Virus record (IMG/VR): IMGVR_UViG_3300002835_000041
Coordinates: 32,001-96,000 of that record
Length of the DNA stretch: 64,000 nt
From: a virus
Direction: 5' to 3' (one strand)
A program made the position numbers and the translations under genes. Below the pieces are notes generated by a model. That model was not told the DNA's origin and did not search any database. It saw only the letters and a list, made by a program, of their open reading frames with translations. How positions within the stretch are numbered: position 1 is the first letter of the stretch; the number at the start of each line of letters is the position of its first letter. Positions 11,876 through 45,305 of this stretch are shown piece after piece.

Positions 11876-11904
11876 AAAGTCCTGGGTATGACTTTAAACT
11901 ACCC
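11876..11904 (+). ncRNA. H-type pseudoknot element, copy 1
   Basis: AAAGTC-CT-GGGTA-T-GACTTT-AAAC-TACCC; ends 3 nt before tRNA-Asn. Confidence 0.6.
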
Positions 11905-11907
11905 CAT

Positions 11908-11980
11908 TGCCCTATAACTCAGTTGGTAGAGTGCCGAACTGTTAATTCGGATGTCCCTGGATCGAGGCCAGGTGGGGCAG
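11908..11980 (+). tRNA. trnN: tRNA-Asn(GTT)
   Basis: Cloverleaf: acceptor TGCCCTA/TGGGGCA, anticodon arm CCGAA-CTGTTAA-TTCGG; atypical T-loop ATCGAGG; no encoded CCA. Confidence 0.9.
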
Positions 11981-12028
11981 CAGTTTAGTGTATAATTGTT
12001 ATACCAAAACATTTAAGATAAAGGTAAA

Positions 12029-12688
12029 ATGATAACTAAAAAAAATAACATTTCAGGATCCCAATGGTGGATAAACTCTGAAAACTTATCATTGCCTCAA
12101 ATTTTAATGGAGTCTGGACTACCAGACAAATGGTCTAAGTATAACTCAAAAGAAATTTTAAACATAAAAAGCATACTTAAACCAATAAATAACTATGTCC
12201 TTAATCTATATCCAAAGCCAGAAATTATAAACATAACAAATAACATAGTTACTTTTAGGCAAAGAACTCACGCCGAGATTTGGGTTGAAGAAAGAAAAGA
12301 TGGCACACTGTATGCTTTAGATAAGTGTCATCAAAGACAGTTCTATCCATCTTTAAACAATCTAGAAAATAAAGAGTGTTTTGATCCAACCTATAAGTTT
12401 TATATACCCTGGTTTATAAATAAAAATGTTAGCATTAAGATAGCCAGAGTAGAGGATGAGCCTACACCATTCTACATAGGTGAAAAAAATATTATTGGAA
12501 AGCCCCTGCCACATCTATCAGACTATGCCTATTCAGAGTTTGTTGATTTTAAAATTAAGAATACTGGGGAATACTACTTAAAAGAAAAGTATGCTATTAT
12601 TAGTAAGAGCACGGCAATGTACGATATGTCTGTTGTCTTAAGTGACGAAGAGATATCACAAATAAAGGATTACTATGGACAGCAATGA
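12029..12688 (+). CDS. hypothetical protein
   Basis: First ORF of a coupled operon. Confidence 0.6.
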   Translation: MITKKNNISGSQWWINSENLSLPQILMESGLPDKWSKYNSKEILNIKSILKPINNYVLNLYPKPEIINITNNIVTFRQRTHAEIWVEERKDGTLYALDKCHQRQFYPSLNNLENKECFDPTYKFYIPWFINKNVSIKIARVEDEPTPFYIGEKNIIGKPLPHLSDYAYSEFVDFKIKNTGEYYLKEKYAIISKSTAMYDMSVVLSDEEISQIKDYYGQQ

Positions 12689-13439
12689 GTTAGAATTAAC
12701 TTTCATTCCACACGATACGACCACAGGTCTATTGTCTCCAGAGCCATCCTATAAAAAAATACCACAGTGGTATAGAGATTTGGCAAAACATTTTACAACT
12801 AATGACCTAAAGTCTTTGTGTCCAGTAAACGATAGGGGCGGGGATGGGTCAAATGTTTCTACAAAACTATGCTTGCCATTTCAAGATGCAATGTCTCTTG
12901 GGTATATGTATTTACTGGAAGATGACCTAGAAGTAAAACTTGATATAGATGGAAAGCCATCTCTGTCCTGGAAAAAGAATTTTATGATGATGGACAAAAG
13001 ACCTAATGTTGATATGGCAATACCAAAAGATGTTCACCCAATACATTTTGGGGTTAAGATGCAATGGTATTACGAAACACCAAAAGACTATTCTCTATTG
13101 ATGACTATGCCAATAAACAGACCAGACCTACCGTTCTGGATTCCTTCTGGCATTGTTGATTCTGATATATGGGGACTGCCTGCGTTTATACCATTTTTTA
13201 TAAAAAGAGATTTTGAAGGAGTCATTCCAATGGGAACACCAGTGTTTCAGATGATTCCAATTAAAAGAGAGCCTTGGAATTTAGTAGTTGATGATTCTTT
13301 TGAGGCTATAGAAAAACACCAACTAAGATCAGAAAACAGAAGGTCTGACATAACGGCACACTACAGAAAATTTGCATGGAGAAAAAAAGAATATGCAAAG
13401 TATAACAAAGAACAAGCAAACAACAAGGGAGATGAATAA
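12675..13439 (+). CDS. conserved phage beta-rich protein (DUF6065-like)
   Basis: CLPFQDAM..YETPKDYSLL..SGIVDSD..GTPVFQMIPIKREPW pattern. Confidence 0.5.
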   Translation: MDSNELELTFIPHDTTTGLLSPEPSYKKIPQWYRDLAKHFTTNDLKSLCPVNDRGGDGSNVSTKLCLPFQDAMSLGYMYLLEDDLEVKLDIDGKPSLSWKKNFMMMDKRPNVDMAIPKDVHPIHFGVKMQWYYETPKDYSLLMTMPINRPDLPFWIPSGIVDSDIWGLPAFIPFFIKRDFEGVIPMGTPVFQMIPIKREPWNLVVDDSFEAIEKHQLRSENRRSDITAHYRKFAWRKKEYAKYNKEQANNKGDE

Positions 13440-14080
13440 TGTTAAGTAACAGAGAACATAAGTTTTTTGAAAAATATTTAGACAACGATTTAGATCAGTT
13501 GGCTAAATTTTTAGAACAAAAATACGAACTAATTCAAAGCGCTAAACTTCGTGGCGTTGAAACAATGGAAAATGATCCAGGGTATTGGCTAGAGTCTGGA
13601 AGTTTGTCAACTGTAAAGTGGAGAGAGTATAATGTATTTCAACTTTATCATCCATCTCTTCATAAACTATACTCCGAACTATCAAAAACTGTTAAAGAAG
13701 CCTGTGAATATTATGGCGTAGACTTTGAAAAGCAGCAATATTATGTTCAGGGTTGGTTTAATATTAATACCACAGGAAATGGAAAGTTAAACTGGCACGA
13801 TCACGGTGCACCTGGCGCTCCTAATTTTCATGGGTATTACTGTGTAAAGGCTGAGCCATCAACGACATACTATAGACTCTTTGGAGATCCAAATAGAGAA
13901 GTGGCAAATCACAACATAAACAATAGAATGATTGTTTCAGAAATGGGACACCCTCATGCAATGGGAGACTGGGACTGGGAAGGTTCAAGAATAACAGTTG
14001 CGTATGATATTCAACCTCTGCAGTCTTTGCTTATGGGTGGAGAACATACAATTGAACAGCACTGGATTCCATTGTTATAA
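13439..14080 (+). CDS. 2OG-Fe(II) oxygenase-like protein
   Basis: WFNIN..WHDH..HGYYCV..HPHAM..RITVAYDI double-stranded beta-helix motifs. Confidence 0.7.
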   Translation: MLSNREHKFFEKYLDNDLDQLAKFLEQKYELIQSAKLRGVETMENDPGYWLESGSLSTVKWREYNVFQLYHPSLHKLYSELSKTVKEACEYYGVDFEKQQYYVQGWFNINTTGNGKLNWHDHGAPGAPNFHGYYCVKAEPSTTYYRLFGDPNREVANHNINNRMIVSEMGHPHAMGDWDWEGSRITVAYDIQPLQSLLMGGEHTIEQHWIPLL

Positions 14081-14081
14081 A

Positions 14082-14915
14082 ATGAAAAAAATATTAGTTT
14101 ATTTTTATGGGTACAAAAGCAAGTTGCTACCACAAGCAGTAGAGCAACTCATAAAAAATCAAAGTGGTCAAAATGATATACATGTTGTCGTATACGACCA
14201 AACAAATATATCAAGGCCAGAAAAGTTTTTAGGAATAGAATACAATCATATCTACTGGGATAGATTAATATCTAGATTTAAATGCTTTTATCTTCTAAAA
14301 AAAAGAAAAGATTTTGATTTTTTTATGTATGTTGATGGTGCCAAAATGTTTGAAAAGGATTGGGATGCTGAACTATTAAGATACCAGGACGAATCAGATA
14401 TTATACTTTCAGGCAATCACGACATTGTTTTTAATAAAAATAACTATAAGTTTTATCCAGACTGGAATAAAACAAGCATTGCAATGGCAACAAAAAACAA
14501 CTGGTTTGTTAAAGATTTTTTCTTTATGAAATTTAGTTTGTTTGAACTATTTCCTGATATTTCAATATTTAAATATTATGGAGTTGAGGAATATGTTTCC
14601 ATGTATGCAGCGCACAAAGGTATTTCTATAGTTGCTCTTCCAACTAATTTTGTTATTGATCAAGAGCCTAGAATAGAAGAAAATGATTTTGTTCCATTTT
14701 CTCTATATCACAACTATTCAAAAGTTATAGATTCTTTTAAATCAAAAGATGAATCTATGCCTGGAGTAAAAGAACTTATGGATCTTGTAGACTATGATTT
14801 CCGTAGTTTAGAATACTTCCCATATAATACAAACGATGTAGAGTATACATTTTTTTCAAATCTAGATAAAATTTCTGAGCAAAGATTTCATGTAGTGCAG
14901 AATGAGGTATATTGA
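14082..14915 (+). CDS. GT-A glycosyltransferase, divergent paralogue of 50159..51127
   Basis: DFFMYVDGAKMFEKDWD aligns by eye with DYFLQIDSHSRFIDDWD; GVEEYVSM with GEEPTLAL. Confidence 0.55.
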   Translation: MKKILVYFYGYKSKLLPQAVEQLIKNQSGQNDIHVVVYDQTNISRPEKFLGIEYNHIYWDRLISRFKCFYLLKKRKDFDFFMYVDGAKMFEKDWDAELLRYQDESDIILSGNHDIVFNKNNYKFYPDWNKTSIAMATKNNWFVKDFFFMKFSLFELFPDISIFKYYGVEEYVSMYAAHKGISIVALPTNFVIDQEPRIEENDFVPFSLYHNYSKVIDSFKSKDESMPGVKELMDLVDYDFRSLEYFPYNTNDVEYTFFSNLDKISEQRFHVVQNEVY

Positions 14916-15478
14916 TGATAACATTGCCTGTAGTAATTAAAAATTTTATTGCTGCTGAAGATGCACAGACACTAATAAATGAGATTAACAGTCCATCAGA
15001 AGTTAATCCTTACCCAGAATATTACAAGACTAGGTATGGAGGAACTGCTTATCCATACAACAAGGTAGTTTTAGATATTCAAAAAAAATATTCTTTACTA
15101 TCTAACGAGACACACCAAAGACTTAATCCAGAAGAAACAAAGCAAATAAAAACATTTAAATCTTTTGGTTCAGTTTGGACAAAAGGTAGTTCAGCAAACG
15201 CACACGCTGACGATCAGCCACCAGAAGAATTCATTGAATATAGTACGGTAATATATCTTGACGATAATTTTACTGGAGGAGAATTATATTTCCCAAATCT
15301 TAACTTTACATATAAGCCAGAAAAATATGATGGGATATTTTTTGTTAGTGACGGAGAATTATGGAGTCATGGAATATCCGAAATAGAAAGTGGACATAGG
15401 TCAACCCTACTCTACATGCACACAACACAAACAGAACATTCAGGGGGGTATACAATTGTTGATCCAGACCTTAATTAA
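14915..15478 (+). CDS. prolyl-4-hydroxylase-like 2OG-Fe(II) oxygenase
   Basis: HADD, YLDDNFTGGELYF, HGI..GHRST. Confidence 0.8.
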   Translation: MITLPVVIKNFIAAEDAQTLINEINSPSEVNPYPEYYKTRYGGTAYPYNKVVLDIQKKYSLLSNETHQRLNPEETKQIKTFKSFGSVWTKGSSANAHADDQPPEEFIEYSTVIYLDDNFTGGELYFPNLNFTYKPEKYDGIFFVSDGELWSHGISEIESGHRSTLLYMHTTQTEHSGGYTIVDPDLN

Positions 15479-15557
15479 AAAAATTAAGACATACTTAATA
15501 CTAAGAGAAATAAAGAAAAATGATAAAAAAAACAGATACCTGTATTAAGGATAATAT

Positions 15558-16982
15558 ATGATAATTCTTGGAGTAAACGAAACATCTCATGACGCATCAG
15601 TATCTCTAATCAAAGATGGAGAAATTCTTTTTGCAGGGCATGCAGAAAGATATAGCAAACAAAAAAATGACTGGTATATCAATGATAGTTTAATAAAAGA
15701 TGCTTTGCAGTATGGGGCACCAGATCATATTGCCTACTATGAAAAGCCCCTTCTGAAGGCCTCTAGGCTGGCTCTAAGGGGTGGATCTGGAGACTGGAAA
15801 CCAAGGTTTGATATTCCTGGTATACCAAGGAAACATTTTAGTCATCACTATTCTCACGCTGCAGCGGGATACTACACTAGTTCTTTTAGTGATTCCGTAA
15901 TAGTTGTGCTTGATGCTATTGGAGAATACAACACATCTACAATATGGGTTGGTGAAGGAGATAAGATTAGGCTAAAGTATAAGCAAAACTATCCAGTTAG
16001 TTTTGGATTATTTTATTCTGCTTTCACAAAACTAATAGGTCTAATGCCAAATCAAGAAGAATATATCATGATGGGAATGGCAGCATACGGAGACTGGACA
16101 AAATACTATAGAAAAGTAGATGAGTATTTTCCTTCATATACAAAACAAAAATATAATTTTCATCAGGGAATAAATGATTGGGGAGTAAAGATCACTGAGC
16201 AAGATAGGTTTGATATTGCTGCAGCAGTTCAGGTTGTCTATGAGCAAAGACTAAATGATTTTATGCACATGGCATACTCTATTACTGGAAAAAAGAATTT
16301 AGTATTTATGGGTGGTTGTGCACTTAACTCATCAGCAAACACTATGCTTTGGAACATATTTGATATGATCTGGATTATGCCAAACCCTGGAGATGCTGGC
16401 AGTTCTTTGGGTGCTGCTGCTGCACTTTATGGAAAACATCTTGAATGGAAAGACCCATACCTTGGTTATGATCTGGGTGGAAAATATCCTATTCAGAAAA
16501 TTATTGAGGGGATATTAAAAGACGGTATAGTAGCAGTAGCATCAGGAAGAGCAGAATATGGTCCAAGAGCATTAGGAAATAGATCAATTCTTGCAGACCC
16601 AAGAGATCCACTAATCAAAGACAAAGTAAATAGAATTAAACAGAGAGAATTATTTAGGCCATTTGCTCCTGTAGTTTTAGCAGATCACGCATATAGATGG
16701 TTTGATATGGATTTTGAAAGCCCATATATGCAGTACACAGTCAAGTGCTTACAGCCAGACAAGATACCTTCTGTGGTTCATGAAGATGGTACTTCTAGAG
16801 TTCAGACAGTTACAAGAGAACAACATCCAGGATTGTACAGGGTTATAAATAAATTTTATCTACAAACTGGAGTTCCAATACTCTTGAATACTAGTCTTAA
16901 CATAAAGGGTCAACCGCTCCTAAATGATGAAAACGATATACTTAAATGGGAAAAAGAATACAACTTTACAATATGTAGGTAA
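15558..16982 (+). CDS. O-carbamoyltransferase (NodU/CmcH/TobZ family)
   Basis: HDAS..ER, HHYSHAA, MGGCALN, EYGPRALGNRSILADPR, RELFRPFAP, LNTSLN. Confidence 0.92.
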   Translation: MIILGVNETSHDASVSLIKDGEILFAGHAERYSKQKNDWYINDSLIKDALQYGAPDHIAYYEKPLLKASRLALRGGSGDWKPRFDIPGIPRKHFSHHYSHAAAGYYTSSFSDSVIVVLDAIGEYNTSTIWVGEGDKIRLKYKQNYPVSFGLFYSAFTKLIGLMPNQEEYIMMGMAAYGDWTKYYRKVDEYFPSYTKQKYNFHQGINDWGVKITEQDRFDIAAAVQVVYEQRLNDFMHMAYSITGKKNLVFMGGCALNSSANTMLWNIFDMIWIMPNPGDAGSSLGAAAALYGKHLEWKDPYLGYDLGGKYPIQKIIEGILKDGIVAVASGRAEYGPRALGNRSILADPRDPLIKDKVNRIKQRELFRPFAPVVLADHAYRWFDMDFESPYMQYTVKCLQPDKIPSVVHEDGTSRVQTVTREQHPGLYRVINKFYLQTGVPILLNTSLNIKGQPLLNDENDILKWEKEYNFTICR

Positions 16983-17019
16983 ACTGGTATAATAGATATG
17001 TCCTTAAAGGAGGAATAAA

Positions 17020-17634
17020 ATGGCAGCAAAAGGTAGTCTAGAAGCAATCATTGAGATTGCAAAAAAGGAAGTGGGCACAATTGAAGGCCCTAAAGATAAT
17101 GAAACAAAATATGGCAAGTGGACTGGGATGAATTTTCAGCCATGGTGCCAGTCATTTGTTTCTTGGTGTGCATTTACATCGGGATTAGATCCAAAGAAGT
17201 ATCCAAAGTCTGCATCAACAGTAGCAGCGTCAGATTGGTTCAAGAAGAATGGGCGTTGGTCAGATGCTCGTAATGATGATCCACAAGCAGGAGACTGGAT
17301 TTATTTTGATTTTCCAGAAGATGGTGTAAATCGTATTTCACATGTTGGAATCTGTATCAAGAACAACGGAGATGGAACAATCCAAGTTATTGAGGGAAAC
17401 ACTTCAGGAACTGCAAAGGGAGATCAGCGCAATGGCGGAATGTGCGTAGAGAAGACTCGTGGTTATGTAAAAAACAACAAGAAGAAGTTGCTTAATGGAG
17501 TTGTCGGTTGGGGTCGTCCAGTTTATACTGGTGAAGAAAATGCTCCGCTTCTCAATAAGGTGGTAGCACCAGTTGTAGCAAAGCCTGCAGTAAAGCCAGT
17601 AGTTAAGAAACCAGTAGCAAAGAAGGCTAAGTAA
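17020..17634 (+). CDS. CHAP-domain peptidoglycan hydrolase
   Basis: PWCQSFVSWC, HVGI, IEGNT; Lys/Pro-rich tail. Confidence 0.85.
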   Translation: MAAKGSLEAIIEIAKKEVGTIEGPKDNETKYGKWTGMNFQPWCQSFVSWCAFTSGLDPKKYPKSASTVAASDWFKKNGRWSDARNDDPQAGDWIYFDFPEDGVNRISHVGICIKNNGDGTIQVIEGNTSGTAKGDQRNGGMCVEKTRGYVKNNKKKLLNGVVGWGRPVYTGEENAPLLNKVVAPVVAKPAVKPVVKKPVAKKAK

Positions 17635-17835
17635 ATGGAATCAACAAAAAGAACTCTACTAAAAACAGCAAGTTGGGAAACATTTCATCTTGTTGGTGTT
17701 GCTGGTGTAATTTATTTATTTACTGGTGAGTGGGAGTATGCAAGTCTTGGTGCTCTTATTTACATTGGTTGGGAAGCACTCGGATATTTCTTACACGAAA
17801 GAGTTTGGGCTAAGTTTGGAAACAAGGTAAAGTAA
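17635..17835 (+). CDS. DUF2061 membrane protein
   Basis: KRTLLKTASW..YFLHERVW. Confidence 0.7.
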   Translation: MESTKRTLLKTASWETFHLVGVAGVIYLFTGEWEYASLGALIYIGWEALGYFLHERVWAKFGNKVK

Positions 17836-17941
17836 TGCGTATTAAGATAATTAAGTTTGTCGTAAAGGCATTAGGCTATGAGTGGGGTGGGGATTCGCTT
17901 AAGGCACCAATCTGGACAGTAAAAGAAAAGAAAAAGAAATA

Positions 17942-18127
17942 GTGCCAGCCTACGAATATGTTTGTGAGTCCTGTAATAAGAACTACACAAAGGTTCGTAG
18001 TATAAAAGAAGACGATCCAGGGTATGGTTGTGAAACTTGCAATCTGCCTCTGGTTCGTGTATACTCGAATATAGGAGCAGTTTTCAACGGTAGTGGATTT
18101 TATTCCACTGATAACAGAAAGAAATAG
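17942..18127 (+). CDS. FmdB-family zinc-ribbon protein
   Basis: MPAYEYVCESC..CETC..FNGSGFYSTD. Confidence 0.8.
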   Translation: MPAYEYVCESCNKNYTKVRSIKEDDPGYGCETCNLPLVRVYSNIGAVFNGSGFYSTDNRKK

Positions 18128-18137
18128 GCAGTATACT

Positions 18138-18392
18138 ATGAAGACAATGATTGATGAATCAGTAGAAGTAAAGCAGTGGACACTATCTCCATTGGATAGG
18201 TGTGATTCTTGTGCTGCTGAAGCGTTAGTTCAAGTTACTGGAATCTCTGGAGATTTAATGTTTTGTGGACATCACTACAATAAGATTATGGATAATCCTG
18301 AAGGTTATAAAAAAATGATGTCTTTTGCTCTTACCATCCTTGATGAAAGAGAAAAACTTGTTGAGAATAAGTCAAAGGGTAAGGATTACTAA
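18138..18392 (+). CDS. hypothetical Zn-binding protein
   Basis: DRCDSC..LMFCGHH. Confidence 0.55.
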   Translation: MKTMIDESVEVKQWTLSPLDRCDSCAAEALVQVTGISGDLMFCGHHYNKIMDNPEGYKKMMSFALTILDEREKLVENKSKGKDY

Positions 18393-19153
18393 TGATCATT
18401 CAGATTATTGGACTACCTGGTTCTGGTAAAACAGAACTTGCAAAGGCTTTAAAAGAAAGAATTAATGCTATACATCTTAATGCAGATGAAGTTCGTGCAA
18501 CAGTAAATTCTGATCTTGGATTTACTCCTGAAGACAGGCTTGAACAAGCACGACGAATGGGAGAGATGGCAAGGCTAATTGCAAAACAAGGTGTTGCTCC
18601 AGTCATTGTAGATTTTGTATGCCCAACAGAATTAACTCGTAAAGCATTTGGAAAGCCAGATATTTTAATCTACATGGAAACAATTGAAGAAAGCAGATTT
18701 GAAGATACTAATAAAATGTTTGAAGTACCCAGCAATTTTGACATGGCTTTTATTAGTCATGAGTGGAACGCAAACGAAAAAGCAACAGAAATTATTAAGC
18801 AGTTCAGACTACATGACTGGTCTGCACCCACAACACTTATGCTAGGTAGGTACCAGCCTTGGCACGAAGGCCACCACGCCCTTTACAAGGAGGCTGGCAA
18901 GAGAACTGAGCAGGTACTTCTGGGAGTCCGTAATACCTATAATACAAGTGAAAAGGATCCACTTAAGTTTGATCAGGTAAAAGAATATATTGCCAAAGAT
19001 GAATTTATGGATGGTGCATTAGTATTAAGATTGCCTAACATTACTAACATTGTGTATGGTCGTGATGTAGGGTATAAGATTGAGCAAGTAGATTTGGGGG
19101 CAGACATTCATGCTATATCGGCTACGCAAAAGCGCAAAGAAATGGGCATCTAA
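18392..19153 (+). CDS. cysC: adenylylsulfate kinase fused to HxGH nucleotidyltransferase domain
   Basis: GLPGSGKT, LNADEVR, DLGFTPEDR N-domain; GRYQPWHEGH..ISAT C-domain. Confidence 0.75.
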   Translation: MIIQIIGLPGSGKTELAKALKERINAIHLNADEVRATVNSDLGFTPEDRLEQARRMGEMARLIAKQGVAPVIVDFVCPTELTRKAFGKPDILIYMETIEESRFEDTNKMFEVPSNFDMAFISHEWNANEKATEIIKQFRLHDWSAPTTLMLGRYQPWHEGHHALYKEAGKRTEQVLLGVRNTYNTSEKDPLKFDQVKEYIAKDEFMDGALVLRLPNITNIVYGRDVGYKIEQVDLGADIHAISATQKRKEMGI

Positions 19154-19201
19154 GGTTTGGAACTTAATAACTAAAGGCCCTAAAAATATGGAGTGGCCAG
19201 C

Positions 19202-19405
19202 ATGAATGTATCTAAACAAAGATCAGCACTAAAGGCTATTACATGGCGTATAATTGGAACAGCAGATACATTTGCTATTGCTTGGCTTATAACCAAAGAG
19301 CCAGTTACAGCAGGTGCAATCGCAAGTTTCGAGGTAGTTACAAAAACAATCCTTTATTACTTCCATGAGCGTGGTTGGAATAAAGTTAAATGGGGGAGAA
19401 AATAA
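19202..19405 (+). CDS. DUF2061 membrane protein
   Basis: RSALKAITWR..YYFHERGWNK. Confidence 0.75.
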   Translation: MNVSKQRSALKAITWRIIGTADTFAIAWLITKEPVTAGAIASFEVVTKTILYYFHERGWNKVKWGRK

Positions 19406-20141: not shown

Positions 20142-20165
20142 TATACTGGGTGTCTAGGAGTATTT

Positions 20166-23573: not shown

Positions 23574-23843
23574 ATGAATGAACAAATTAAAAGAGCACTA
23601 GCGTCATATGGAAGATCAGTTCTTGGAGCAGCAACAGCAATGTATGCCTCTGGAGTGACAGATCCACAGACACTAGCATACTCACTACTTGGAGCACTTG
23701 TCCCCGTAGTATTGAGAGCAGCCAACCCTAATGACTTGGCATTTGGCAAGATGCCAGATGTTAAAGAGGTTGAGGTAGCACTAAAGACTGCTAAGGTAGT
23801 TAAGAAGGCACCAGCAAAGAAAACAGCAGTAAAAAAGAAGTAG
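23574..23843 (+). CDS. hypothetical membrane-associated protein
   Basis: Strong SD GGAGG; hydrophobic core and Lys-rich tail. Confidence 0.6.
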   Translation: MNEQIKRALASYGRSVLGAATAMYASGVTDPQTLAYSLLGALVPVVLRAANPNDLAFGKMPDVKEVEVALKTAKVVKKAPAKKTAVKKK

Positions 23844-23938
23844 TATAATAGATACTATTCCGCTATGAGACTTTAAAAGGTTTTACAACGGATGTTCCCT
23901 TGATGGGAAAGTTAGCAGGAGTTGAATCTTCGTGGCTA

Positions 23939-23969
23939 ATAGACCTGAGCAGTCGTCTATAAACTGCTC
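23939..23969 (+). ncRNA. H-type pseudoknot element, copy 2
   Basis: ATAGAC-CT-GAGCA-GTC-GTCTAT-AAAC-TGCTC. Confidence 0.6.
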
Positions 23970-24043: not shown

Positions 24044-24448
24044 ATGGTAAAAACAGCATTGGATCTTTTTAATGATCCATTTTTCAATACCTTCTCAAAT
24101 CTACAGAAGGTAACAACAACAACAAACTATCCACCTTATAACCAAATCAAACTAAATGATACAGAGTATATTCTTTCATTTGCTTTGGCTGGATTTTCTA
24201 AGGATGATGTCTCAGTATCGCTAGACAATCGCAAACTTACAATCAAGGGCGAAAAGCAGGATGCTGAGTTACCAGAGGGTGCAGAGTATCTACATAAGGG
24301 CATTGCTGCTCGTAAGTTTACTGATATCTTTACCCTTCCTGAGTTTGTTGAGGTGGTTGGGGCTGAGTTTAAGGATGGTATCTTAGATATCAAACTTGAG
24401 AAGCAGATCCCAGAAGACAAACTACCAAAAACAATCGCAATTAAGTAG
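24044..24448 (+). CDS. Hsp20 small heat-shock protein
   Basis: NYPPYN, ALAGF, YLHKGIAARKF, FKDGILDI. Confidence 0.92.
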   Translation: MVKTALDLFNDPFFNTFSNLQKVTTTTNYPPYNQIKLNDTEYILSFALAGFSKDDVSVSLDNRKLTIKGEKQDAELPEGAEYLHKGIAARKFTDIFTLPEFVEVVGAEFKDGILDIKLEKQIPEDKLPKTIAIK

Positions 24449-36890: not shown

Positions 36891-36891
36891 A

Positions 36892-37676: not shown

Positions 37677-38038
37677 TTGGGTCCTTTGTTTGGGTTATAT
37701 ATTAATTATAGCGGAGACCACTGACAAATTAGAAATATCCTTCTGCCATTAGTCCTTCAAGGAAGTCTTTGGTTTTCCACAGGGTATTGTGTAGCCAAGG
37801 ATCTTGATCAGGATTAACATTAATCATAAGTGATTGAACACCCAAGATCATATCTAGTGCATCTACTTCTTCATATCCCACTAGTGGCATTATCCTACCT
37901 CTATCCCAGCATACTTAGCCATAGTATTAAGAGTGATGTGGATGTGACAGTCACAATCCTCTCCCCCCATATTTTCATCAAACTCTAGGTGAGAGAAATT
38001 GTCCTCATAAATCTCATTGATTAGTTCGTCTATGGTGT

Positions 38039-38281
38039 TCATTTTGTGTGCCACTCCCCTAGTTCAGGTAGGAATACATTTTCTTCTATATCCCATTGGG
38101 CATCGTCCCAACTAAGTTCATCAGACATTACCTTGGCAATCTCGTCTATGAAGGTTTGCATAACGGCTTCTGCGTGGTGTCTATTCTTAGCCTTGATATT
38201 TGTAATAGAGATAGCAAGATCACAAGAATAGTAATCTGCATACATTGTTGGGTCTTCCATTGTTTCTGTTTCTAGGGTCAT
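38039..38281 (-). CDS. hypothetical protein
   Basis: ORF track. Confidence 0.55.
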   Translation of the reverse strand: MTLETETMEDPTMYADYYSCDLAISITNIKAKNRHHAEAVMQTFIDEIAKVMSDELSWDDAQWDIEENVFLPELGEWHTK

Positions 38282-38496
38282 ACATATTCCTTTTCGTAGG
38301 CTTGGTGTGAGGTTACTACTAATTCTAGCATTTCGGCAGGGTATCTGTCAAGCACCCAATTAAGGGCCTCTCCAGCAGTCTTAAAGTCAGAGGCGGTAGT
38401 GCTCTCCCCATAACCTTGAATGGTTGCTTCCCAGCAGTCAATACCACCAGGTGAGACGGAGTAGTTCATTTCATATATTGCCACTTGTTTGGTCAT
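38278..38496 (-). CDS. hypothetical protein
   Basis: ORF track. Confidence 0.55.
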   Translation of the reverse strand: MTKQVAIYEMNYSVSPGGIDCWEATIQGYGESTTASDFKTAGEALNWVLDRYPAEMLELVVTSHQAYEKEYV

Positions 38497-38679
38497 ATAT
38501 TAATTATCGCATAATCTAGGGAAAATGTCAACTCTATCGTAAAGATTTTTTGGTTTGACATTTTGGGGGATCTTTTATAGTCTTCGTAAAGATTTTTTAA
38601 TTTGACATTTTTATGTCCGATTTGTCTGGTTTGGGGCACGTGCAATTTTTATGCATTGCAGTGCATATTTATTTACTTG

Positions 38680-38753
38680 CGATCCGTACGGGACTTGAAC
38701 CCGTGACCTCTACCGTGACAGGGTAGCGAACTAACCAACTATTCTAACGGACC
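38680..38753 (-). tRNA. trnD: tRNA-Asp(GTC)
   Basis: Acceptor GGTCCGT/ACGGATC, arm CTACC-CTGTCAC-GGTAG, T-loop TTCAAGT. Confidence 0.92.
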
Positions 38754-38760
38754 TAATGGT

Positions 38761-38788
38761 GAGCAGTTTTAATTCTTGCTCAGGAATT
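38761..38788 (-). ncRNA. H-type pseudoknot element, copy 3
   Basis: AATTC-CT-GAGCA-A-GAATT-AAAAC-TGCTC; ends 7 nt before tRNA-Asp. Confidence 0.6.
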
Positions 38789-38794
38789 TTTTTG

Positions 38795-39817
38795 TTATGC
38801 TAAAGACATAACATTCTGAACTACTTTTAGCAAACGATTTTTTTCTGCGTTGATAGCAGGGTCAAATCCTGATGCTGATGCGAGAATGGATTCGTTATTG
38901 CCACCACGAGCAGAACGATACCAGTCAAGTCGCTCAGTTAGCGCATTGAACGCACCCCAAGCATTACCAGCAATCATACCATTAAATTCACCAGTGTAAA
39001 TATCGTTAATCATATCTACCTTGTTTTCCCATTTCTTGCTTGAACCCTTAGCATCTTTTTCAGGCTTTGGGTAAGCAGCAAGAATGATTTTGTTAAAGTC
39101 AATGGCGCTAACTTCTTTTTCAATCATAGCCTTAGCCATAATATCAAATTCGTCCATATAAGCATTAGCAAGACCAAGAGTTTCACGAGCAATCTGAACT
39201 TTGCCGTTAGCGGTCTGAGTGTGGCGAATCTTGAAAGATTGCTTGATGCCCTTATTCTTCTTACGACCTACGCCACCAAGCGCAAGGTTAAGAGTGTTAG
39301 CGCATACGACACGAACTGGCGTGATGCTTGCTTGAATAGCGATTGAACCATCGTGTGATGTGTTGATGAGCAAATAAGTTTTTACCTTATCTGATACACC
39401 ATTAGGGTCAAGAATTGTTTCACGCTCTAGTGCTAAAGCACCGAACACGACACGACCACCCTTGATTGAACCAGCGGTTTCCCAACGACCACCGCCGTCT
39501 AGGATATTATCACCGAATGAAAACAAATCTTCATTTTGTAGTGGGTGATAACGCTCACCAACAATTCCAAGAACATCTGTCTGAGAGTTATCTGTTGGGT
39601 TAGTGCGTAGGACATACTGATATGCCTTATCGCTTGTGAGATGTGTAGGGGTTTCCAAATCTTCTAGGCGAACATTCCACCCATTTAGATTTGCTGCTTG
39701 TAGCATTTCTGCCGTTGTTTTTTCTTCTGTAAAGACTGTTCCCAATCCGTGCCAAGCAGGTTCTCTGAATGATGCGAATGAGGTTTTGCCATTTTGCGTT
39801 TCTAAGTCGTGAGCCAC
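38795..39817 (-). CDS. DUF932/DUF945 phage/plasmid-like protein (TIGR03299-like)
   Basis: REPAWHGLG, WETAGSIKGGRVVF, SHDGS, VRVVCANT, AWGAFNALTE. Confidence 0.85.
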   Translation of the reverse strand: MAHDLETQNGKTSFASFREPAWHGLGTVFTEEKTTAEMLQAANLNGWNVRLEDLETPTHLTSDKAYQYVLRTNPTDNSQTDVLGIVGERYHPLQNEDLFSFGDNILDGGGRWETAGSIKGGRVVFGALALERETILDPNGVSDKVKTYLLINTSHDGSIAIQASITPVRVVCANTLNLALGGVGRKKNKGIKQSFKIRHTQTANGKVQIARETLGLANAYMDEFDIMAKAMIEKEVSAIDFNKIILAAYPKPEKDAKGSSKKWENKVDMINDIYTGEFNGMIAGNAWGAFNALTERLDWYRSARGGNNESILASASGFDPAINAEKNRLLKVVQNVMSLA

Positions 39818-39998
39818 GATTTCCTTCTTTCTGTTGTTGATAATCTAATCATACACCCACCCACCGACAAAAGTCAAATCGTATAAGTAATCAGGGGACA
39901 AATGGGGCATTTCGTAACTGTGTCGTAATTCACAATGTGATCTTCGCCATGTGGATAACCTGTGGATAAACCCCACGTGCAAAATTTTATAAAAAAGA

Positions 39999-40026
39999 GA
40001 GCAGTTTTAAAACTTGCTCAGGTTTT
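39999..40026 (-). ncRNA. H-type pseudoknot element, copy 4
   Basis: AAAAC-CT-GAGCA-A-GTTTT-AAAAC-TGCTC. Confidence 0.6.
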
Positions 40027-40042
40027 TATTAGTAGCCCCCTA

Positions 40043-40474
40043 CTAAATATCTATTCTATCAATTGAGGATGATAGATAAGAAATGTTGTCTGAGTTATAA
40101 TCGACGGTATCGAAATCAATATCGTGAATTGCATTCTGTGCATCCTCTTCAGTGCGAGCATTAACAGTAACAGAATACATAACTGTAACTTCAACTTCGA
40201 ATTCTTTTGTTAATTCAAAGCCCATAATTTCTGCAATTGATTCTGCTTGAGACTCAGAGATATCTTCACTCTCTAATTCACTAAGGGTCCACTCTTGCAT
40301 TGATTCAACCATACGGTTGCGTTCTGCAGAGTCTGCATATGAGCGCTGAGTTACTTTTTGAATGTGCTCCTCTAATTGAGTTACACGCAATGTTGCCTTG
40401 GCTAAAGAATCACGAAGAAACTCTTCTGTTGCATTGACTGTGCTTGCTAGTGTTGATATATCTTGCTGGTCCAT
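40043..40474 (-). CDS. hypothetical protein with coiled coil
   Basis: ORF track. Confidence 0.6.
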   Translation of the reverse strand: MDQQDISTLASTVNATEEFLRDSLAKATLRVTQLEEHIQKVTQRSYADSAERNRMVESMQEWTLSELESEDISESQAESIAEIMGFELTKEFEVEVTVMYSVTVNARTEEDAQNAIHDIDFDTVDYNSDNISYLSSSIDRIDI

Positions 40475-40537
40475 TGGGGGCCTCTTTCTGTTTGTTGGTT
40501 TATATTAATTATACTGTAAGGCACTGACAATTGTCAA

Positions 40538-41035
40538 CTACCAAGATGAGCAATAAGAAAATGAAAGTCGATCAATTTCTGGTAGCGCAAATATACGCTC
40601 TAATTGATTAATAGTATTAGTAAGGTCCTTCCAATACCATTCATCAATATCTGTGCTCCCAAAGAAAAATCCTTCTTGTGGTGGGAACAGGCTAGGGTCT
40701 TTTGTTTCTAATGCGTGTTTACATAAAGCAAGCAACTCTATTAGTTTATCTTGTGAAACATAGTAACTACCACAGTCATCAATACCGTTCTGAATATTCT
40801 TTACGAACCAAGCGTGTATCTGATTAGCCTTGCGCCAATAAGCACAAGTAACTTCTACGCTTGCTCCATAGATATCTGTAGCGACATCTGTTAGTTGAGT
40901 TATTTCCATTAAGTCATTGAACTTAGGGTATACGGCTTCGGGTGAGTCATAAGATAGTTCATCATTTGACTGTAGTGCTTTCCAGTTAATTTTTTCTAAA
41001 TGCTTTTTAGCACTAAGATACATATCTAGTCCCAT
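40538..41035 (-). CDS. conserved phage hypothetical protein
   Basis: MGLDMYL..AYWRKANQIHAWF..GFFFG..YCSSW. Confidence 0.65.
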   Translation of the reverse strand: MGLDMYLSAKKHLEKINWKALQSNDELSYDSPEAVYPKFNDLMEITQLTDVATDIYGASVEVTCAYWRKANQIHAWFVKNIQNGIDDCGSYYVSQDKLIELLALCKHALETKDPSLFPPQEGFFFGSTDIDEWYWKDLTNTINQLERIFALPEIDRLSFSYCSSW

Positions 41036-41225
41036 TGGGGGCTTCCTTCTTTCTGTTTGTTTCTTTTAATTATACTATAGGGGTCTGACAAATTGGGTGA
41101 TAGGGGTAGGCACGGCCGTTAGTCTGGAACCCACCCCTATCAGATCCCCAGGGGACGCTTGCTATAAATAGCGTGGAACGCAGGGGATAATGAGTGGGGC
41201 TTTTACACCCCACCCAATTATCTAA

Positions 41226-41648
41226 TTAGAGATAACGAGCAACCGCATTGTATGTGGAAGTATTTACAACTTCCTCATCTGTCATCTTTAAGATGCGAAT
41301 TGCGTTTGTGATTTCCTCTTTCATTTCCTTATAGGTATGAGTGTGAATAACCTCAAAATCCTTTTCAGGTTCAGCAGGGAAAGTTCCCTCTTTTGTGATG
41401 ATGTCAAAATCAACATTGAGAGTGTTGTTCCAAGAACGATAGTTAGTGCGTAGGTTTTCAGCCTTTGAGAAGTTGGCAATAGCCCACTCACCAATTTGCT
41501 TTTTCCAAGCCTCATAAGCAACTGTGTGCTTGCGTTCGTTTTCTCCTTGTGTTGCGTAGTCCATCTCTAGTTTTGCTAGTGATGCCTCTAGTCCTGCGAT
41601 TACTCGCTGAGTAGGGATTTTTACTGAGATTGCTTTTCCTCTAGCCAT
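41226..41648 (-). CDS. hypothetical protein
   Basis: ORF with AAAAGAGAAAA leader. Confidence 0.6.
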   Translation of the reverse strand: MARGKAISVKIPTQRVIAGLEASLAKLEMDYATQGENERKHTVAYEAWKKQIGEWAIANFSKAENLRTNYRSWNNTLNVDFDIITKEGTFPAEPEKDFEVIHTHTYKEMKEEITNAIRILKMTDEEVVNTSTYNAVARYL

Positions 41649-41691
41649 TTGTTTTCTCTTTTCTTTTGTGGGGTATTAGTTGGGGGTGTGT

Positions 41692-41718
41692 GAGCCTTTT
41701 TGTATCTTGCTCAGGATA
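41692..41718 (-). ncRNA. H-type pseudoknot element, copy 5 (variant)
   Basis: TATC-CT-GAGCA-A-GATA-CAAAAA-GGCTC. Confidence 0.5.
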
Positions 41719-41740
41719 GTTTTTAGCGTTATTGCTAAAC

Positions 41741-41905
41741 TTACTTTGCCGTCCAAGTTGTATAACGGGTTGCGCCATTTACATCTAACTTTACACGAAC
41801 ATTTCCATTAGCCTGTGGTGTAATTTCTGTAATTACTCCGCTGACCTTTGACTTCTGTGTTGTGAAAGTGTCGCCGACCTTGTATGTTGCTGTTGCTACT
41901 GCCAT
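41741..41905 (-). CDS. small SH3-like beta protein
   Basis: MAVATATYKVGDTFTTQKSKVSGVITEI..; paralogue of 42011..42181. Confidence 0.6.
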   Translation of the reverse strand: MAVATATYKVGDTFTTQKSKVSGVITEITPQANGNVRVKLDVNGATRYTTWTAK

Positions 41906-42010
41906 TTTTTTCTCTTTTCTGTTTAGGGGTTGTTATTTGGTTATACCTAAGTATAACATTTTGCGGATAAAAATGTCAAATCTAAACCTGACATTTCTCA
42001 CATTGTGAGA

Positions 42011-42181
42011 TTACTTAGAGGTCTTGACCATAGCAAGGCGTTGTGCGCCATTTGCCAAAATCAGACTAACTCTGGTAACCTTATTAGACATTGGTGTAAA
42101 ACCTGCGATACGACCTGTAACGCCTGTCTTGCTGGTTGTGAATAAATCACCAATTTGGTAAGTGTATCCGTGAAGTGTCAT
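42011..42181 (-). CDS. small SH3-like beta protein
   Basis: MTLHGYTYQIGDLFTTSKTGVTGRI.. Confidence 0.6.
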   Translation of the reverse strand: MTLHGYTYQIGDLFTTSKTGVTGRIAGFTPMSNKVTRVSLILANGAQRLAMVKTSK

Positions 42182-42420
42182 TTGGGTCTTGCCTTTCGTT
42201 GTGGGGGTTAATTGCTTATAGTATAATTTTAGCAAAAAAATGTCAGAAATACAAATCCTGGGGGGGGTTCTGGGGTGTGTTCTTAAACACATCTTAAAGG
42301 CGTGTCGCAACTTGACAAATCAAGTTTTGCGGACGTGGATCCCATGCAATTTTTATTGGTAAAAAAATAAAAGTACTATGCACCAAATTAAAAATATTAT
42401 TTGCAGGGAATTCATTTATC

Positions 42421-43155
42421 TCATTTCTTACTCGCAGAAAAAATTATGTCACTCTTAGAGTATACACAAAGTGAGCAAGAAACGCAAGCGCTACCTTGTT
42501 GAGATATAAGTTTAATTTGTTTATTATTCTCAGGACACTTAGCAGCGGGGCGACCAATCATTTCTTTTACATCGGCCTGGCCAATTGCAAAATTCTTAGC
42601 AAGATATGCCATTCTAACACCGCTATTAATTTTTAGATCAACGGCAGTTTTTACATTCTCGCTATCTGCAGAAAAATACAATGATAAATTAGATACATCC
42701 TTAAGAATAAGTGCAGCAGCCTTTACTCTAGTGTATACCCAGAATTGAATGTCGGGGTGCTTATCAATAACTACTTTCCAGGCATAGGTATAGGTATCGT
42801 TAAAGAAATCGCCGTCCCAGTGAATACGGAATAACTTAGGAGCGTCTTTCTTTTCACAATCAGATACAAAATCAACAATCATCTCATCAAGCAGGCGCAC
42901 CATAGTTTCTCCGTCTGCGTCTTTCAGCAGGGACCAATTGTGCAATAGGTTAACCTTTACGGTTGGGAAGACTTTTTCAAGTTTTCCTGCGTAGCAAACG
43001 CTTTCACAAACACTAGTGGCACCAGGGCACGAGAAAGCCTTTCCAGCAGGTAGGCCAAAGGTATTTGCGATACTTGCTTGTTTTCCATTAGGGGTGACGG
43101 CATTAGCGACCTTTCTATCTTTAGATCTTTTTAGTTTAAGTGTATTAGTAGTCAA
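42421..43155 (-). CDS. phage gp88-like Cys-cluster protein
   Basis: SCPGATSVCESVCYA, FRIHWDGDF, WVYTR, C-terminal CP..CVSCSLC. Confidence 0.7.
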   Translation of the reverse strand: MTTNTLKLKRSKDRKVANAVTPNGKQASIANTFGLPAGKAFSCPGATSVCESVCYAGKLEKVFPTVKVNLLHNWSLLKDADGETMVRLLDEMIVDFVSDCEKKDAPKLFRIHWDGDFFNDTYTYAWKVVIDKHPDIQFWVYTRVKAAALILKDVSNLSLYFSADSENVKTAVDLKINSGVRMAYLAKNFAIGQADVKEMIGRPAAKCPENNKQIKLISQQGSACVSCSLCVYSKSDIIFSASKK

Positions 43156-43323
43156 GGCCTAGACTCATTTCTAGAGCAATGTCTTCGTTATAGTGAGCGG
43201 ACATTTCTTCTAGTAAGCAATGAGTGCACTTTTCTTCATATTCATCAACCGCATTTTCACGGCAAGAAGGGCAGGTGGTTGCGTAGTATTCATCATAGAA
43301 TTCATCAGCGATATTTCCCATAG
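43145..43323 (-). CDS. small Zn-finger protein
   Basis: MGNIADEF..CPSC..CTHC; start approximate. Confidence 0.45.
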
Positions 43324-43591
43324 GGGCTATTCTCCTTTTTGTTGTTTTTTTAATTGTAGCAGTTCGGACTGACATTTTTTACGGTTGTATTTCTTTTTAT
43401 TAGGCACCGCAGAGGCAGCATTAGAACGGCGAAGTTCCATAAGTCTGCGTAATTCCTCTGAGTTTTTTTTCATACTTAATCTTAGCATACAGGGGCAAAA
43501 AATGTCAAATCTTAAAATGTGATAAATCTCACAGGGCGGGACGTGGACCACGTGCATTTTTGTGCGGGGAAGCACACAAAAATACTTTTAA

Positions 43592-43834
43592 CTATTCTTC
43601 TTGTTCAATAAAAACATACAACGGAATTAAATCAGTATAACTATACTGTGTAAATTCTGTTTCACCAAATTCATTTTCGGTTTGTATGTCGTAGTTATCT
43701 CCTGTTGAATCACATTCAATAAAATTAACTTCAACGATGTCATCACCAATTTTAATTAAATCACCAAGCATTAATTGGTCGGGTGTTAAGTTATCTGCGT
43801 GGATCAATTCCATAGTTTCCATTGTATCAGACAT
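43592..43834 (-). CDS. hypothetical protein
   Basis: ORF track. Confidence 0.55.
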   Translation of the reverse strand: MSDTMETMELIHADNLTPDQLMLGDLIKIGDDIVEVNFIECDSTGDNYDIQTENEFGETEFTQYSYTDLIPLYVFIEQEE

Positions 43835-43835
43835 T

Positions 43836-44120
43836 CTATTCCTCCCAATCAGGTAGCCAAAATTCCAAGTGGTGTTGGCTTATGATAGCCCTCGCAGGTG
43901 CGTGAGTCATTCCCTTATAGAGAATCTGAAAGTCGCCAACCATAGGCATATCAATCATTCGGTCATAGTCCTCATCATAGTATGCGTCAATAGCCTCGAT
44001 ACAAGGTTTTACCATTTCTGCGGGGACGGGTGGATAGTGATTACCTTTAAGGTGATAAAGTAATTGTGTTTCTAAGTCTAAGACTTCATCTTTAATTCCA
44101 AGTGCGGTTATGCTTCCCAT
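43836..44120 (-). CDS. hypothetical protein
   Basis: ORF track. Confidence 0.6.
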   Translation of the reverse strand: MGSITALGIKDEVLDLETQLLYHLKGNHYPPVPAEMVKPCIEAIDAYYDEDYDRMIDMPMVGDFQILYKGMTHAPARAIISQHHLEFWLPDWEE

Positions 44121-44262
44121 TATATTTTCTCCTCTATGTCTGCGACATAAACATCGCTTCGTCTAATCATTCCATATTTTAAGTTACTATCGAACATATC
44201 AACGGCATCTTCTTCATTGTCTGCCTCGACATTTATAAAACAAGTAAATTCATATAGTGCCA

Positions 44263-44481
44263 TTACGCTCTTACCTGAACCCTTCCATCTCGGTAGAATA
44301 CTTTAGTGTAACACTTTCCTGTCGGTGTGTAAATATTCACTGTTGAGTATTCGTTAGCCATTCCCCAGTCGGTAAATCGGAAAAAACTTTCCCAAGCACC
44401 AAATTCGTTTTCATAGCGTTGTTCCCAGTGAGGTTTTGCCTCTGAGTCATACTGACAAGTTACTAGGTATTCATATTCCAT
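44263..44481 (-). CDS. hypothetical protein
   Basis: ORF track. Confidence 0.55.
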   Translation of the reverse strand: MEYEYLVTCQYDSEAKPHWEQRYENEFGAWESFFRFTDWGMANEYSTVNIYTPTGKCYTKVFYRDGRVQVRA

Positions 44482-44790
44482 TATTCTGCCTCTTTCGTTG
44501 TAAATAGTGCGCCTTCATTAAGTAAGCCGACTTCCAAATTAAATAACTCATCTGAGTTTGCTTGCGACAAGTCTATCCAACCTGCGCCTTCATTGTCAAT
44601 TCTAAATATTTCTATGTATCCCATTAGTTTTCACACTCACAATCTTTTGAGTAATCAAATTCGCAAAAATAGCAACCCATTAACTCGCTATGGGTTTTAC
44701 ACTGATAACGGAATTGGACTTCATCACAACACAAGAAAGATAAATCCCAAATCCAATAGAATTCGTTTTGGTCAATAACACTAGCCATAA

Positions 44791-44997
44791 TTACTCACCA
44801 ACCTTTACTGCGATAGTCGCAAATTTATTTCGCAAGCCTTTAGCATTGACCTCAATTAGATAGGCTTCGGTATTTTCTCCATACCAAATTCCTTCTCGCT
44901 TTTGAGCCGATACAATTTCGCCCTCAAAGTGGCGGTTGCGTGAGCGATAGTTTTTCCCTACAAGTAGGCTTTCTATTGTGTATAGTTTGGTAGCCAT
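44791..44997 (-). CDS. hypothetical protein
   Basis: ORF track, first gene after a promoter. Confidence 0.55.
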   Translation of the reverse strand: MATKLYTIESLLVGKNYRSRNRHFEGEIVSAQKREGIWYGENTEAYLIEVNAKGLRNKFATIAVKVGE

Positions 44998-45277
44998 TGG
45001 CAGACCTCTTTCTTTTTGTTGATAATTCTATCCTAGCATAGCCCACTGACATTTTTAGTTAGGCTCGCCGTATCGGATAGACTTTCTTTATTTATTTTTT
45101 CTTACTATGTAAGTCTATATGATTAAACTAAAAATATCAACTTACTAGCCAGTAAATCCAAATAGTGAGACGCTCAAGCCGTGTGATTAATCTCACAAAA
45201 TTTCGGGCGTGTCGTAAACAACTTCTTAAACACCTGTGGATAAGCCTGTGGATAACTTTTTGCCACGTCCAAAATTT

Positions 45278-45305
45278 GAGCAGTTTTCAATCTTGCTCAG
45301 GATCA
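45278..45305 (-). ncRNA. H-type pseudoknot element, copy 6
   Basis: TGATC-CT-GAGCA-A-GATTG-AAAAC-TGCTC. Confidence 0.6.

Follow-up and report, generated by a model that had tools for sequence, protein, structure and literature searches.

A family of ~27-nt H-type pseudoknots that lie past genes and before tRNAs in phages of many bacterial phyla

A 64,000-nucleotide (nt) stretch of viral DNA, bases 32001–96000 of the 118,981-bp IMG/VR record IMGVR_UViG_3300002835_000041 (rated complete) and hereafter called the window, carries six copies of a motif of about 27 nt. Here we show that both stems of this motif, P1 and P2, covary in more than 100 IMG/VR homologues, a pattern that strongly supports a family of H-type pseudoknots. 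The motif lies always on the transcribed strand, mostly past a stop codon or before a tRNA, and it recurs in phages of several families. On these grounds we propose, with a confidence that falls a little short of even, that it is a self-contained 3′-end module that blocks 3′-to-5′ exonucleases, marks mature RNA ends and insulates the RNA upstream. As an RNA family it is in no catalogue, although its structural kind is known, and its role would be new for phages if the 3′-end reading holds.

Six copies of the motif in the window

The six copies were first proposed in an original prediction, made from the letters of the window, as dispersed pseudoknots with a variable but paired P1 and an A-rich loop 3 (L3). 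Coordinates, strands and stem sequences were all borne out (Table 1), and a covariance model built from the homologues scores the copies at 34.5–46.7 bits, the next match in the window reaching 12.1 bits. The window and the whole 118,981-bp record hold exactly these six; a relaxed pattern run over the entire record returned no others. Each copy opens with a variable P1a strand of 4–6 nt ending in C, followed by CU (loop 1, L1), the P2 strand GAGCA, a loop 2 (L2) of 1–3 bases, a P1b strand that starts with G and complements P1a, an A-rich run ending in AAAC, and finally UGCUC. The switch of P2 in copy 1 to a doubly compensated GGGUA/UACCC, part of the original description, stands, but that description missed that copy 5 is slightly degenerate, with P2 merely GAGC/GCUC and L3 reading CAAAAAG.

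Table 1 Copies of the motif and associated RNA features in the window
Feature	Position	Strand	Description	Score (bits)
Copy 1	11876–11904	+	P1 AAAGUC/GACUUU, L1 CU, P2 GGGUA/UACCC, L3 AAAC	35.5
tRNA-Asn(GUU)	11908–11981	+	ARAGORN and Rfam; co-oriented with copy 1	
Body of small non-coding RNA	23856–23938	+	Conserved; no Rfam match	
Copy 2	23939–23969	+	P1 AUAGAC/GUCUAU, L2 GUC, P2 GAGCA/UGCUC	35.6
tRNA-Asp(GUC)	38679–38753	−	ARAGORN and Rfam; co-oriented, directly 3′ of copy 3	
Copy 3	38761–38788	−	P1 AAUUC/GAAUU; near-consensus	46.7
Copy 4	39999–40026	−	P1 AAAAC/GUUUU	44.3
Copy 5	41692–41719	−	P1 UAUC/GAUA	34.5
Copy 6	45278–45305	−	P1 UGAUC/GAUUG with two G-U pairs	36.0

Both stems covary in independent homologues

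To collect homologues, IMG/VR was scanned with the two conserved blocks only, CCTGAGCA and AAACTGCTC separated by 5–9 free bases, a pattern that leaves P1 out and that matched at least 120 stretches. Among the 129 distinct matches listed, unselected for P1, 103 form P1 with at least four contiguous pairs, using 33 different inner P1 sequences; when the P1a strands were swapped among matches, the mean was 14.7 and the maximum 29. Pairing of P2 was examined in a scan that demanded P1, CU and AAAC but nothing of P2, with reversed sequence as the control. Here 116 matches carried the consensus P2 and 68 did not, and P2 was nonetheless fully paired in 26 of these 68, whereas the control gave 0 of 58; among the variants that pair are GGGUA/UACCC, GGACA/UGUCC, AAGCA/UGCUU, GGCCA/UGGCC, AGACA/UGUCU and GAGUA/UACUC. 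A descriptor of the whole fold found 151 matches in 1.17 Mb of viral loci and 2 in the reversed sequence, which excludes chance. In an alignment of 137 members, 89.9% of cells are paired (73.9% when shuffled, 25–39% when partners are slid) and the covariation score is 0.435 (0.133 and 0.03–0.06, respectively); because these members had been selected for pairing, the evidential weight rests on the unselected tests of P1 and P2. Orthologous sites compensate as well: the P1 upstream of tRNA-Asp reads AAUUC/GAAUU here and AAAUC/GAUUU in relatives.

G-U pairs occur solely on the transcribed strand (in copy 6, and ten times as GAGUA/UGCUC), which indicates that the element acts as RNA and not as a site in duplex DNA. 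A DNA-level signal such as a protein-binding site, nick site or origin is ruled out by this, by an orientation that always follows the genes and by the P1 sequence, which changes from copy to copy almost throughout.

Once refined, the consensus reads NNNC-CU-GAGCA-W-GNNN-NNAAAC-UGCUC, most often with A as the next base. P1 pairs as had been proposed, but its conserved core is only 4 bp long, shorter than most of the stems first drawn, with a fifth pair in 40% of members. Of 146 distinct viral copies, 140 have C-G as the closing pair and 133 have an L2 of just one base (A, U or C); the U of L1, directly before P2, and the AAA of L3 are invariant, the spacing between the two P2 strands is nearly constant, P2 begins with G and ends with C in ~94%, and G is depleted for about eight bases after it.

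Such strong conservation of unpaired bases (C-U in L1, AAAC in L3) and of the closing pair is what one might expect of a minimal aptamer akin to preQ1-I, the size and topology of which are similar, or of a very small self-cleaving RNA, small ribozymes being common in phages. We hold this explanation to be highly improbable, as no Rfam riboswitch or ribozyme model matches the motif even at an E value of 10, an L2 of one base leaves no junction pocket of the preQ1-I type, and a position at 3′ ends and before tRNAs, in up to six copies per genome, ill suits an aptamer that controls a gene.

Stop codons often lie a few nucleotides upstream

Placement was analysed for the 146 distinct viral copies, or for subsets of 140 and 142 of them, and upheld the expectation that the motif lies on the transcribed strand, at the ends of genes and in tRNA leaders. 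It begins 4–10 nt past a same-strand stop codon in 64 of 140 copies and within 30 nt in 90, whereas only 22 of 690 random positions fell 1–10 nt past such a stop; two of the 140 lie inside same-strand open reading frames (ORFs). With one stray exception the conserved core stays at least 9 nt from the stop codon, and the peak at 9–10 nt means that P1 begins 4–6 nt past it.

In the window, five copies follow an ORF stop by 4–21 nt: copy 1 by 4 nt (ORF 10894–11871), copy 3 by 6 nt (a DUF932 gene, 38795–39817), copy 4 by 16 nt (ORF 40043–40474), copy 5 by 21 nt (a 54-aa ORF, 41741–41905, with ORF 41226–41648 ~45 nt further on) and copy 6 by 4 nt (a 41-aa ORF, 45310–45435). For copy 2 the original description needs correction: the TAA that adjoins it lies in a stop-filled frame, and no real ORF precedes the copy. 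Copies 4 and 5 are the two that stand more than 10 nt from the stop, and in each case a small hairpin occupies the interval: UAGUAG-GGGG-CUACUA at 40030–40045 (−) and UUUAGC-AAUAAC-GCUAAA at 41720–41740 (−).

The spacing admits a translation-linked role, in which the fold abuts the terminating ribosome and either prevents read-through, re-initiation or scanning, or adjusts how termination and recycling proceed. Such spacing keeps a structure folded at the mRNA entrance while the preceding codon occupies the A site, the geometry of frameshift pseudoknots. Coremin-type motifs of RNA viruses, moreover, stall ribosomes and promote frameshifting (PMC10520033, PMC10321173). We nevertheless regard a roadblock of this kind as improbable: copy 2 and others end non-coding RNAs or have no stop codon within 60 nt (31 of 140 copies), and what lies downstream is often a tRNA and not an ORF. 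A −1 frameshift signal in particular was rejected, for the slippery heptamer X XXY YYZ is found in none of the 69 stop-proximal copies, and tRNAs or promoters follow.

tRNAs follow some copies directly

A co-oriented tRNA, for Asp, Asn, Arg, Ser or Gln, begins 3–14 nt past the end of the motif in 17 of 146 copies, and none of the 146 viral copies lies within 90 nt after a tRNA or beside one on the opposite strand. Two such sites are in the window, at the distances originally given: tRNA-Asn 3 nt after copy 1, with no space for a promoter of its own between them, and tRNA-Asp 7 nt after copy 3 (ARAGORN and Rfam).

This proximity to real tRNAs counts in favour of a further explanation, that the motif mimics a tRNA acceptor arm or serves as a processing signal. 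Stacked P2 and P1 would then imitate the acceptor/T helix, and RNase P, RNase Z, a CCA-adding enzyme or another tRNA-end enzyme would cut or tag the RNA, which would thereby be punctuated as it is by tRNAs. The acceptor arm of the TYMV tRNA-like structure, a substrate of RNase P, is built from a hairpin loop paired to the 3′ strand and followed by ACCA, and the topology of the motif is the same. Its invariant U before P2 recalls the U(−1) preferred in RNase P substrates, and the G...C ends of P2 resemble G1–C72; the next base, at the discriminator position, is A in 65% of copies, followed by C in 52% and then by C or U, with ACC the commonest trinucleotide after the motif (24 of 146). We give this mimicry little credence, however. 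Both ARAGORN and the Rfam tRNA model are blind to the motif, which has no T loop and a helix of only 9–11 bp (~12 stacked bp in a tRNA-like structure), and the ACCA signal comes largely from orthologous tRNA-Asp sites, ACC following 1 of 38 copies on bacterial contigs. RNase P cleavage before G(+1) would, in addition, destroy the fold and leave the upstream RNA unprotected.

U-rich tracts follow a third of the copies

A U-rich tract directly follows the motif in 45 of 142 copies (32%), compared with 273 of 2255 control gene ends (12%), whereas conventional hairpin-plus-U terminators are not enriched downstream (7 of 142 compared with 173 of 2255). It had been thought that no copy in the window has a U tract; this is not quite right, as UCUUUUUU follows copy 4 and AUUUCUUAU lies directly 3′ of copy 2. 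The four minus-strand copies sit in a 9-kb early region that has no other terminator-like site on its coding strand, each lodged behind the end of a gene and ahead of the next tRNA or promoter-like site.

These observations are those expected if the nascent pseudoknot served as a transcription terminator or pause signal in place of a GC-rich hairpin, all the more because nested folding prefers the P2 hairpin, which abuts the U tract where one is present. Against termination as the function, transcription must pass through 17 copies into the tRNAs that follow, two thirds lack a U tract, the helix is not a GC-rich hairpin and 27 copies stand 11–30 nt before the next start codon. The motif is found, too, between genes of a phage of the Autographiviridae, a family that by definition uses its own single-subunit RNA polymerase for most genes. 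Taken as a whole, a terminator or pause seems to us a doubtful explanation.

A small non-coding RNA ends in copy 2

Copy 2 forms the 3′ end of a conserved non-coding RNA of ~105 nt (23841–23969, +). A promoter-like, conserved TAGTATAAT box lies at 23841–23849, and three hairpins of the RNA show compensatory changes in seven relatives. The Hsp20 gene (24044–24448) lies downstream, with an extended −10 box (TGCTATAAT) of its own starting 12 nt past copy 2. As the copy thus ends an independently promoted non-coding RNA, the role of the motif would concern RNA ends and not translation. This RNA also carries a T-arm-like segment, GGAGUUGAAUCUUC.

The motif is widespread among phages

A search among related actinophages had been suggested, a frame that proved too narrow: the motif is present in phages of many phyla and several families, including a microvirus. 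Canonical copies occur in Mycobacterium phage Labelle (Patiencevirus; 4 nt past gene 85), in the T4-like cyanophage S-RIM4 (Kyanoviridae), in the T7-like Paracoccus phage ParMal1 (Autographiviridae; in the gap between genes, with a Shine-Dalgarno sequence 20 nt further on), in a Christensenellales phage and in a 5,035-nt Microviridae genome (17 nt past the gene for a DNA-binding protein); the sequence pattern of the motif is also present in the crAss-like phage cr8_1. Since a microvirus has no room for a dedicated RNA-binding factor and a phage of the ParMal1 type has its own polymerase, action is most likely post-transcriptional and either autonomous or host-general. Two further database matches are of a different order. 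A weak copy (30.5 bits, with a poor P1) lies in Erwinia phage Berlingot (Chaseviridae; positions 4123–5643 of the record), within a 1.5-kb stretch that has no annotated genes and may be a region of RNA genes. The best BLAST match among deposited phages, in a Pelagibacter phage, was spurious, lacking P1 and lying antisense inside a gene.

In a collection of bacterial genomes, 84 of 122 pattern matches lack P1 and are due to chance, whereas 38 have a proper P1. The contigs that bear these 38 are labelled Saccharibacteria, Lachnospiraceae, Eggerthellaceae, Anaerolineae, Calothrix, Clostridium, Coxiellaceae, Polynucleobacter, Omnitrophica and others, and are presumably prophages or phage contigs.

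Relation to known RNA families

At gathering scores, Rfam 15 finds only five tRNAs in the whole window, and when copy 3 and the copy 2 region were scanned permissively, only chance-level matches appeared (E 0.8–10), among them CRISPR-DR, a snoRNA, mir-5470 and preQ1-II (15.5 bits, cut-off 47). This agrees with the earlier view that the motif belongs to no named family. Literature searches by motif sequence, by pseudoknot with phage and exoribonuclease-resistant, and by H-type pseudoknot with phage and tRNA genes returned unrelated papers only; the paper on phage Patience reports proteomics without RNA mapping, and RNA mapping for carrier phages was not found in the literature. The motif may be among the 10,006 unnamed candidate viral RNAs catalogued in 2023 (PMC10690425), although the text of that paper does not describe it.

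Architecturally, the motif comes close to the −1 frameshift pseudoknots of luteovirids (BWYV/PLRV-type), which likewise span 26–28 nt and combine a short stem 1 with a loop 1 of 1–2 nt that begins with C, a single junction base and an A-rich loop 3 (docked in the stem-1 minor groove in BWYV); they lie just 3′ of the A-site codon, a few nt away. Unlike these, the motif belongs to DNA phages, lacks a slippery heptamer or overlapping frame, follows stops or ends non-coding RNAs, and has a P2 of 5–6 bp with a nearly fixed sequence.

Coremin (xrRNA-C) and its Watson–Crick variant xrRNA-WCC, from plant, fungal and other RNA viruses (PMC6546385, PMC10520033, PMC10321173), offer a second parallel. Small and pseudoknot-like, coremin stalls an exonuclease as well as ribosomes (PMC6546385, PMC10321173); it is a tiny hairpin of untranslated and intergenic regions, the loop of which contacts a 3′ segment past an ..AAAC U.. 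spacer, and xrRNA-WCC has a GAG/CUC stem 2 past an AAAC-containing spacer (PMC10321173). The coremin consensus differs, however: its stem has 3 bp, its loop reads YGAD or YGNNAD, its GUUAAACUAC spacer is fixed and a second hairpin is obligatory (PMC10520033), whereas the motif has an 8-nt loop (CUGAGCAW) and a stem 2 of 5–6 bp, with only AAAC-U in common. An unsystematic look downstream of copies found a small hairpin or tRNA in some and U-rich or unstructured sequence in many; a second hairpin does not seem to be required. The direction of protection would differ too: coremin stalls the eukaryotic 5′-to-3′ exonuclease Xrn1, and the placement of the motif argues for protection of the RNA upstream and not downstream.

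The preQ1-I aptamer (RF00522), the smallest natural H-type pseudoknot aptamer known, is comparable in size and has an A-rich loop 3, but its loop 2 of 4–6 nt contains a ligand-pairing C, it resides in the 5′ leaders of queuosine genes, where P2 overlaps the Shine-Dalgarno sequence or a terminator, and its model gave no match to the motif. Membership in this class was rejected on the length of L2 and on the position of copies past stop codons and not in 5′ leaders, the next start codon usually being more than 30 nt distant. Engineered preQ1-type pseudoknots are used to protect the 3′ ends of guide RNAs. A natural precedent for a protected end is the MALAT1 triple helix, which RNase P exposes. 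In MALAT1 and MEN-beta, as is proposed for the motif, an A-rich triplex directly upstream of an RNase P site leads to a protected 3′ end; those RNAs are eukaryotic and much larger, with a U-A-U triple helix and a tRNA-like element downstream, whereas the motif is followed by real tRNAs, and in only ~12% of copies. In bacteria and their phages, T7 RNase III hairpins and REP elements stabilise upstream cistrons. These and terminator hairpins, which protect upstream cistrons against 3′ exonucleases as the motif is proposed to do, resemble it in their gene-end or intercistronic position and single orientation, but they are plain hairpins with no sequence shared across hosts, whereas the motif is a sequence-conserved pseudoknot found across many phyla.

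Two further candidates were rejected. The six copies are single and 1.2–12 kb apart, none in tandem, unlike a ToxI-type (type III) antitoxin RNA, in which pseudoknot repeats of about 36 nt form an array beside a toxN-like gene. CRISPR-DR models reach only 12–16 bits (cut-offs 37–48), and the same sequence recurs in phages of many phyla, unlike a CRISPR repeat, which stands in a repeat-spacer array or is specific to its host.

Genes and sites around the copies

PHROGs and Pfam searches of the genes upstream of the copies found no common function, and megablast of 8 kb against deposited phages gave no matches. The 54-aa ORF upstream of copy 5 is a paralogue of the C-terminal half of a 99-aa ORF (42011–42310, −); the two share the motif Y.(I/V)GD.FTT.K(S/T)(K/G)V(S/T)G.I and have no Pfam match. 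Two TTATCCACA boxes lie downstream of copy 6, and two more, with a promoter-like site, beyond the UCUUUUUU that follows copy 4. Both pairs (39950–39969 and 45235–45255, both −) consist of perfect, DnaA-box-like 9-mers set 11–12 nt apart, ~30–50 nt downstream of the respective copy, and each is preceded by a stretch of similar sequence (UUUUGSACGUGG); both resemble operators for the early promoter that follows.

RNA data came from assembled contigs of four freshwater metatranscriptomes, which are short, belong mostly to relatives at 90–95% identity and do not allow RNA starts or ends to be read; low cover over the intergenic stretches with copies 4 and 6 was not counted as evidence. Loose contig ends mapped to window positions 41689, 41721 and 41226. 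At the copy 5 site, the RNA contig of one relative has a canonical copy with a compensated P2, GAGUA/UACUC, whereas contigs of other relatives have a GC-rich hairpin (ACACGC...GCGUGU) there and after ORF 41226–41648, which hints that gene-end RNA cassettes are interchangeable. This hairpin was sought in the window and in the fetched loci and not found.

A candidate module for RNA 3′ ends

The functions first listed for the motif were 3′-end protection, termination, tRNA or mRNA processing and the binding of a protein or ligand; the evidence favours 3′-end protection or formation and weakens pure termination and ligand binding. In the mechanism that we propose, the motif would stand as a triplex-type H-type pseudoknot, with predicted base triples between L1 and P2 and between L3 and P1, at the end of a message or small RNA, and we infer that this RNA ends just downstream of it. 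The end may be made in three ways: by RNase P cleavage at a tRNA 3–14 nt downstream, by termination at an abutting U tract, or by trimming back from a distal end. All three would give the same product, a pseudoknot with a short tail, and where a tRNA follows, the tail that RNase P leaves would mostly be too short for an exonuclease to grip. The compact fold would then stop host 3′-to-5′ exonucleases, so that the RNA upstream keeps a defined and protected end. During termination of translation, the fold would remain intact at the mRNA entrance with almost no naked RNA between it and the ribosome; the lower bound of the spacing from stop to motif fits this, judging by known ribosome footprints and frameshift spacers. 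The convergence of these routes, the copy that ends a non-coding RNA and the strict orientation together point to a 3′-end module, and a role that is post-transcriptional and host-general or autonomous is favoured by two of its carriers, a T7-like phage that brings its own polymerase and a microvirus of 5 kb without spare genes.

Several observations weigh against this proposal. The 27 copies shortly before a start codon lie inside operons, and about half of all copies are followed by neither a tRNA nor a U tract. Nested folding energies are only −4.8 to −7.2 kcal/mol for five copies, the helices being short and AU-rich; resistance to exonucleases would thus need tertiary contacts, which are presumed. 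The near-invariance of loop and P2 across distant phages, furthermore, exceeds what a plain roadblock would seem to need and hints at specific recognition or chemistry. A bolder reading, which we think unlikely, takes the motif for more than a passive obstacle: for a universal, sequence-specific module read by a near-ubiquitous bacterial machine, or for a minimal aptamer or ribozyme, such that a single 27-nt 'punctuation mark' serves phage RNA ends at large. RNase P or another tRNA-end enzyme, the ribosome entrance and PNPase would be the candidate machines.

Implications

If the 3′-end reading is true, few structured RNA signals of phages would be as small or as widely shared as this 27-nt pseudoknot, whose bases are almost unchanged in microviruses and in T4-like, T7-like, Patience-like and apparently crAss-like phages. 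It is so short that it escapes screens based on minimum free energy and most comparative ones, and an Rfam entry for it would annotate thousands of sites. It would constitute a means, so far absent from annotation, by which RNA 3′ ends are formed and shielded, and would explain transcript boundaries in phage genomes that have no recognisable terminators. Studies of the resistance of triplex pseudoknots to processive enzymes would gain a compact new model, and synthetic biology a portable, host-independent part for stabilising or insulating mRNAs. Should the bolder reading be true, the motif would represent a new class of bacterial RNA signal, of a generality comparable to that of the intrinsic terminator.

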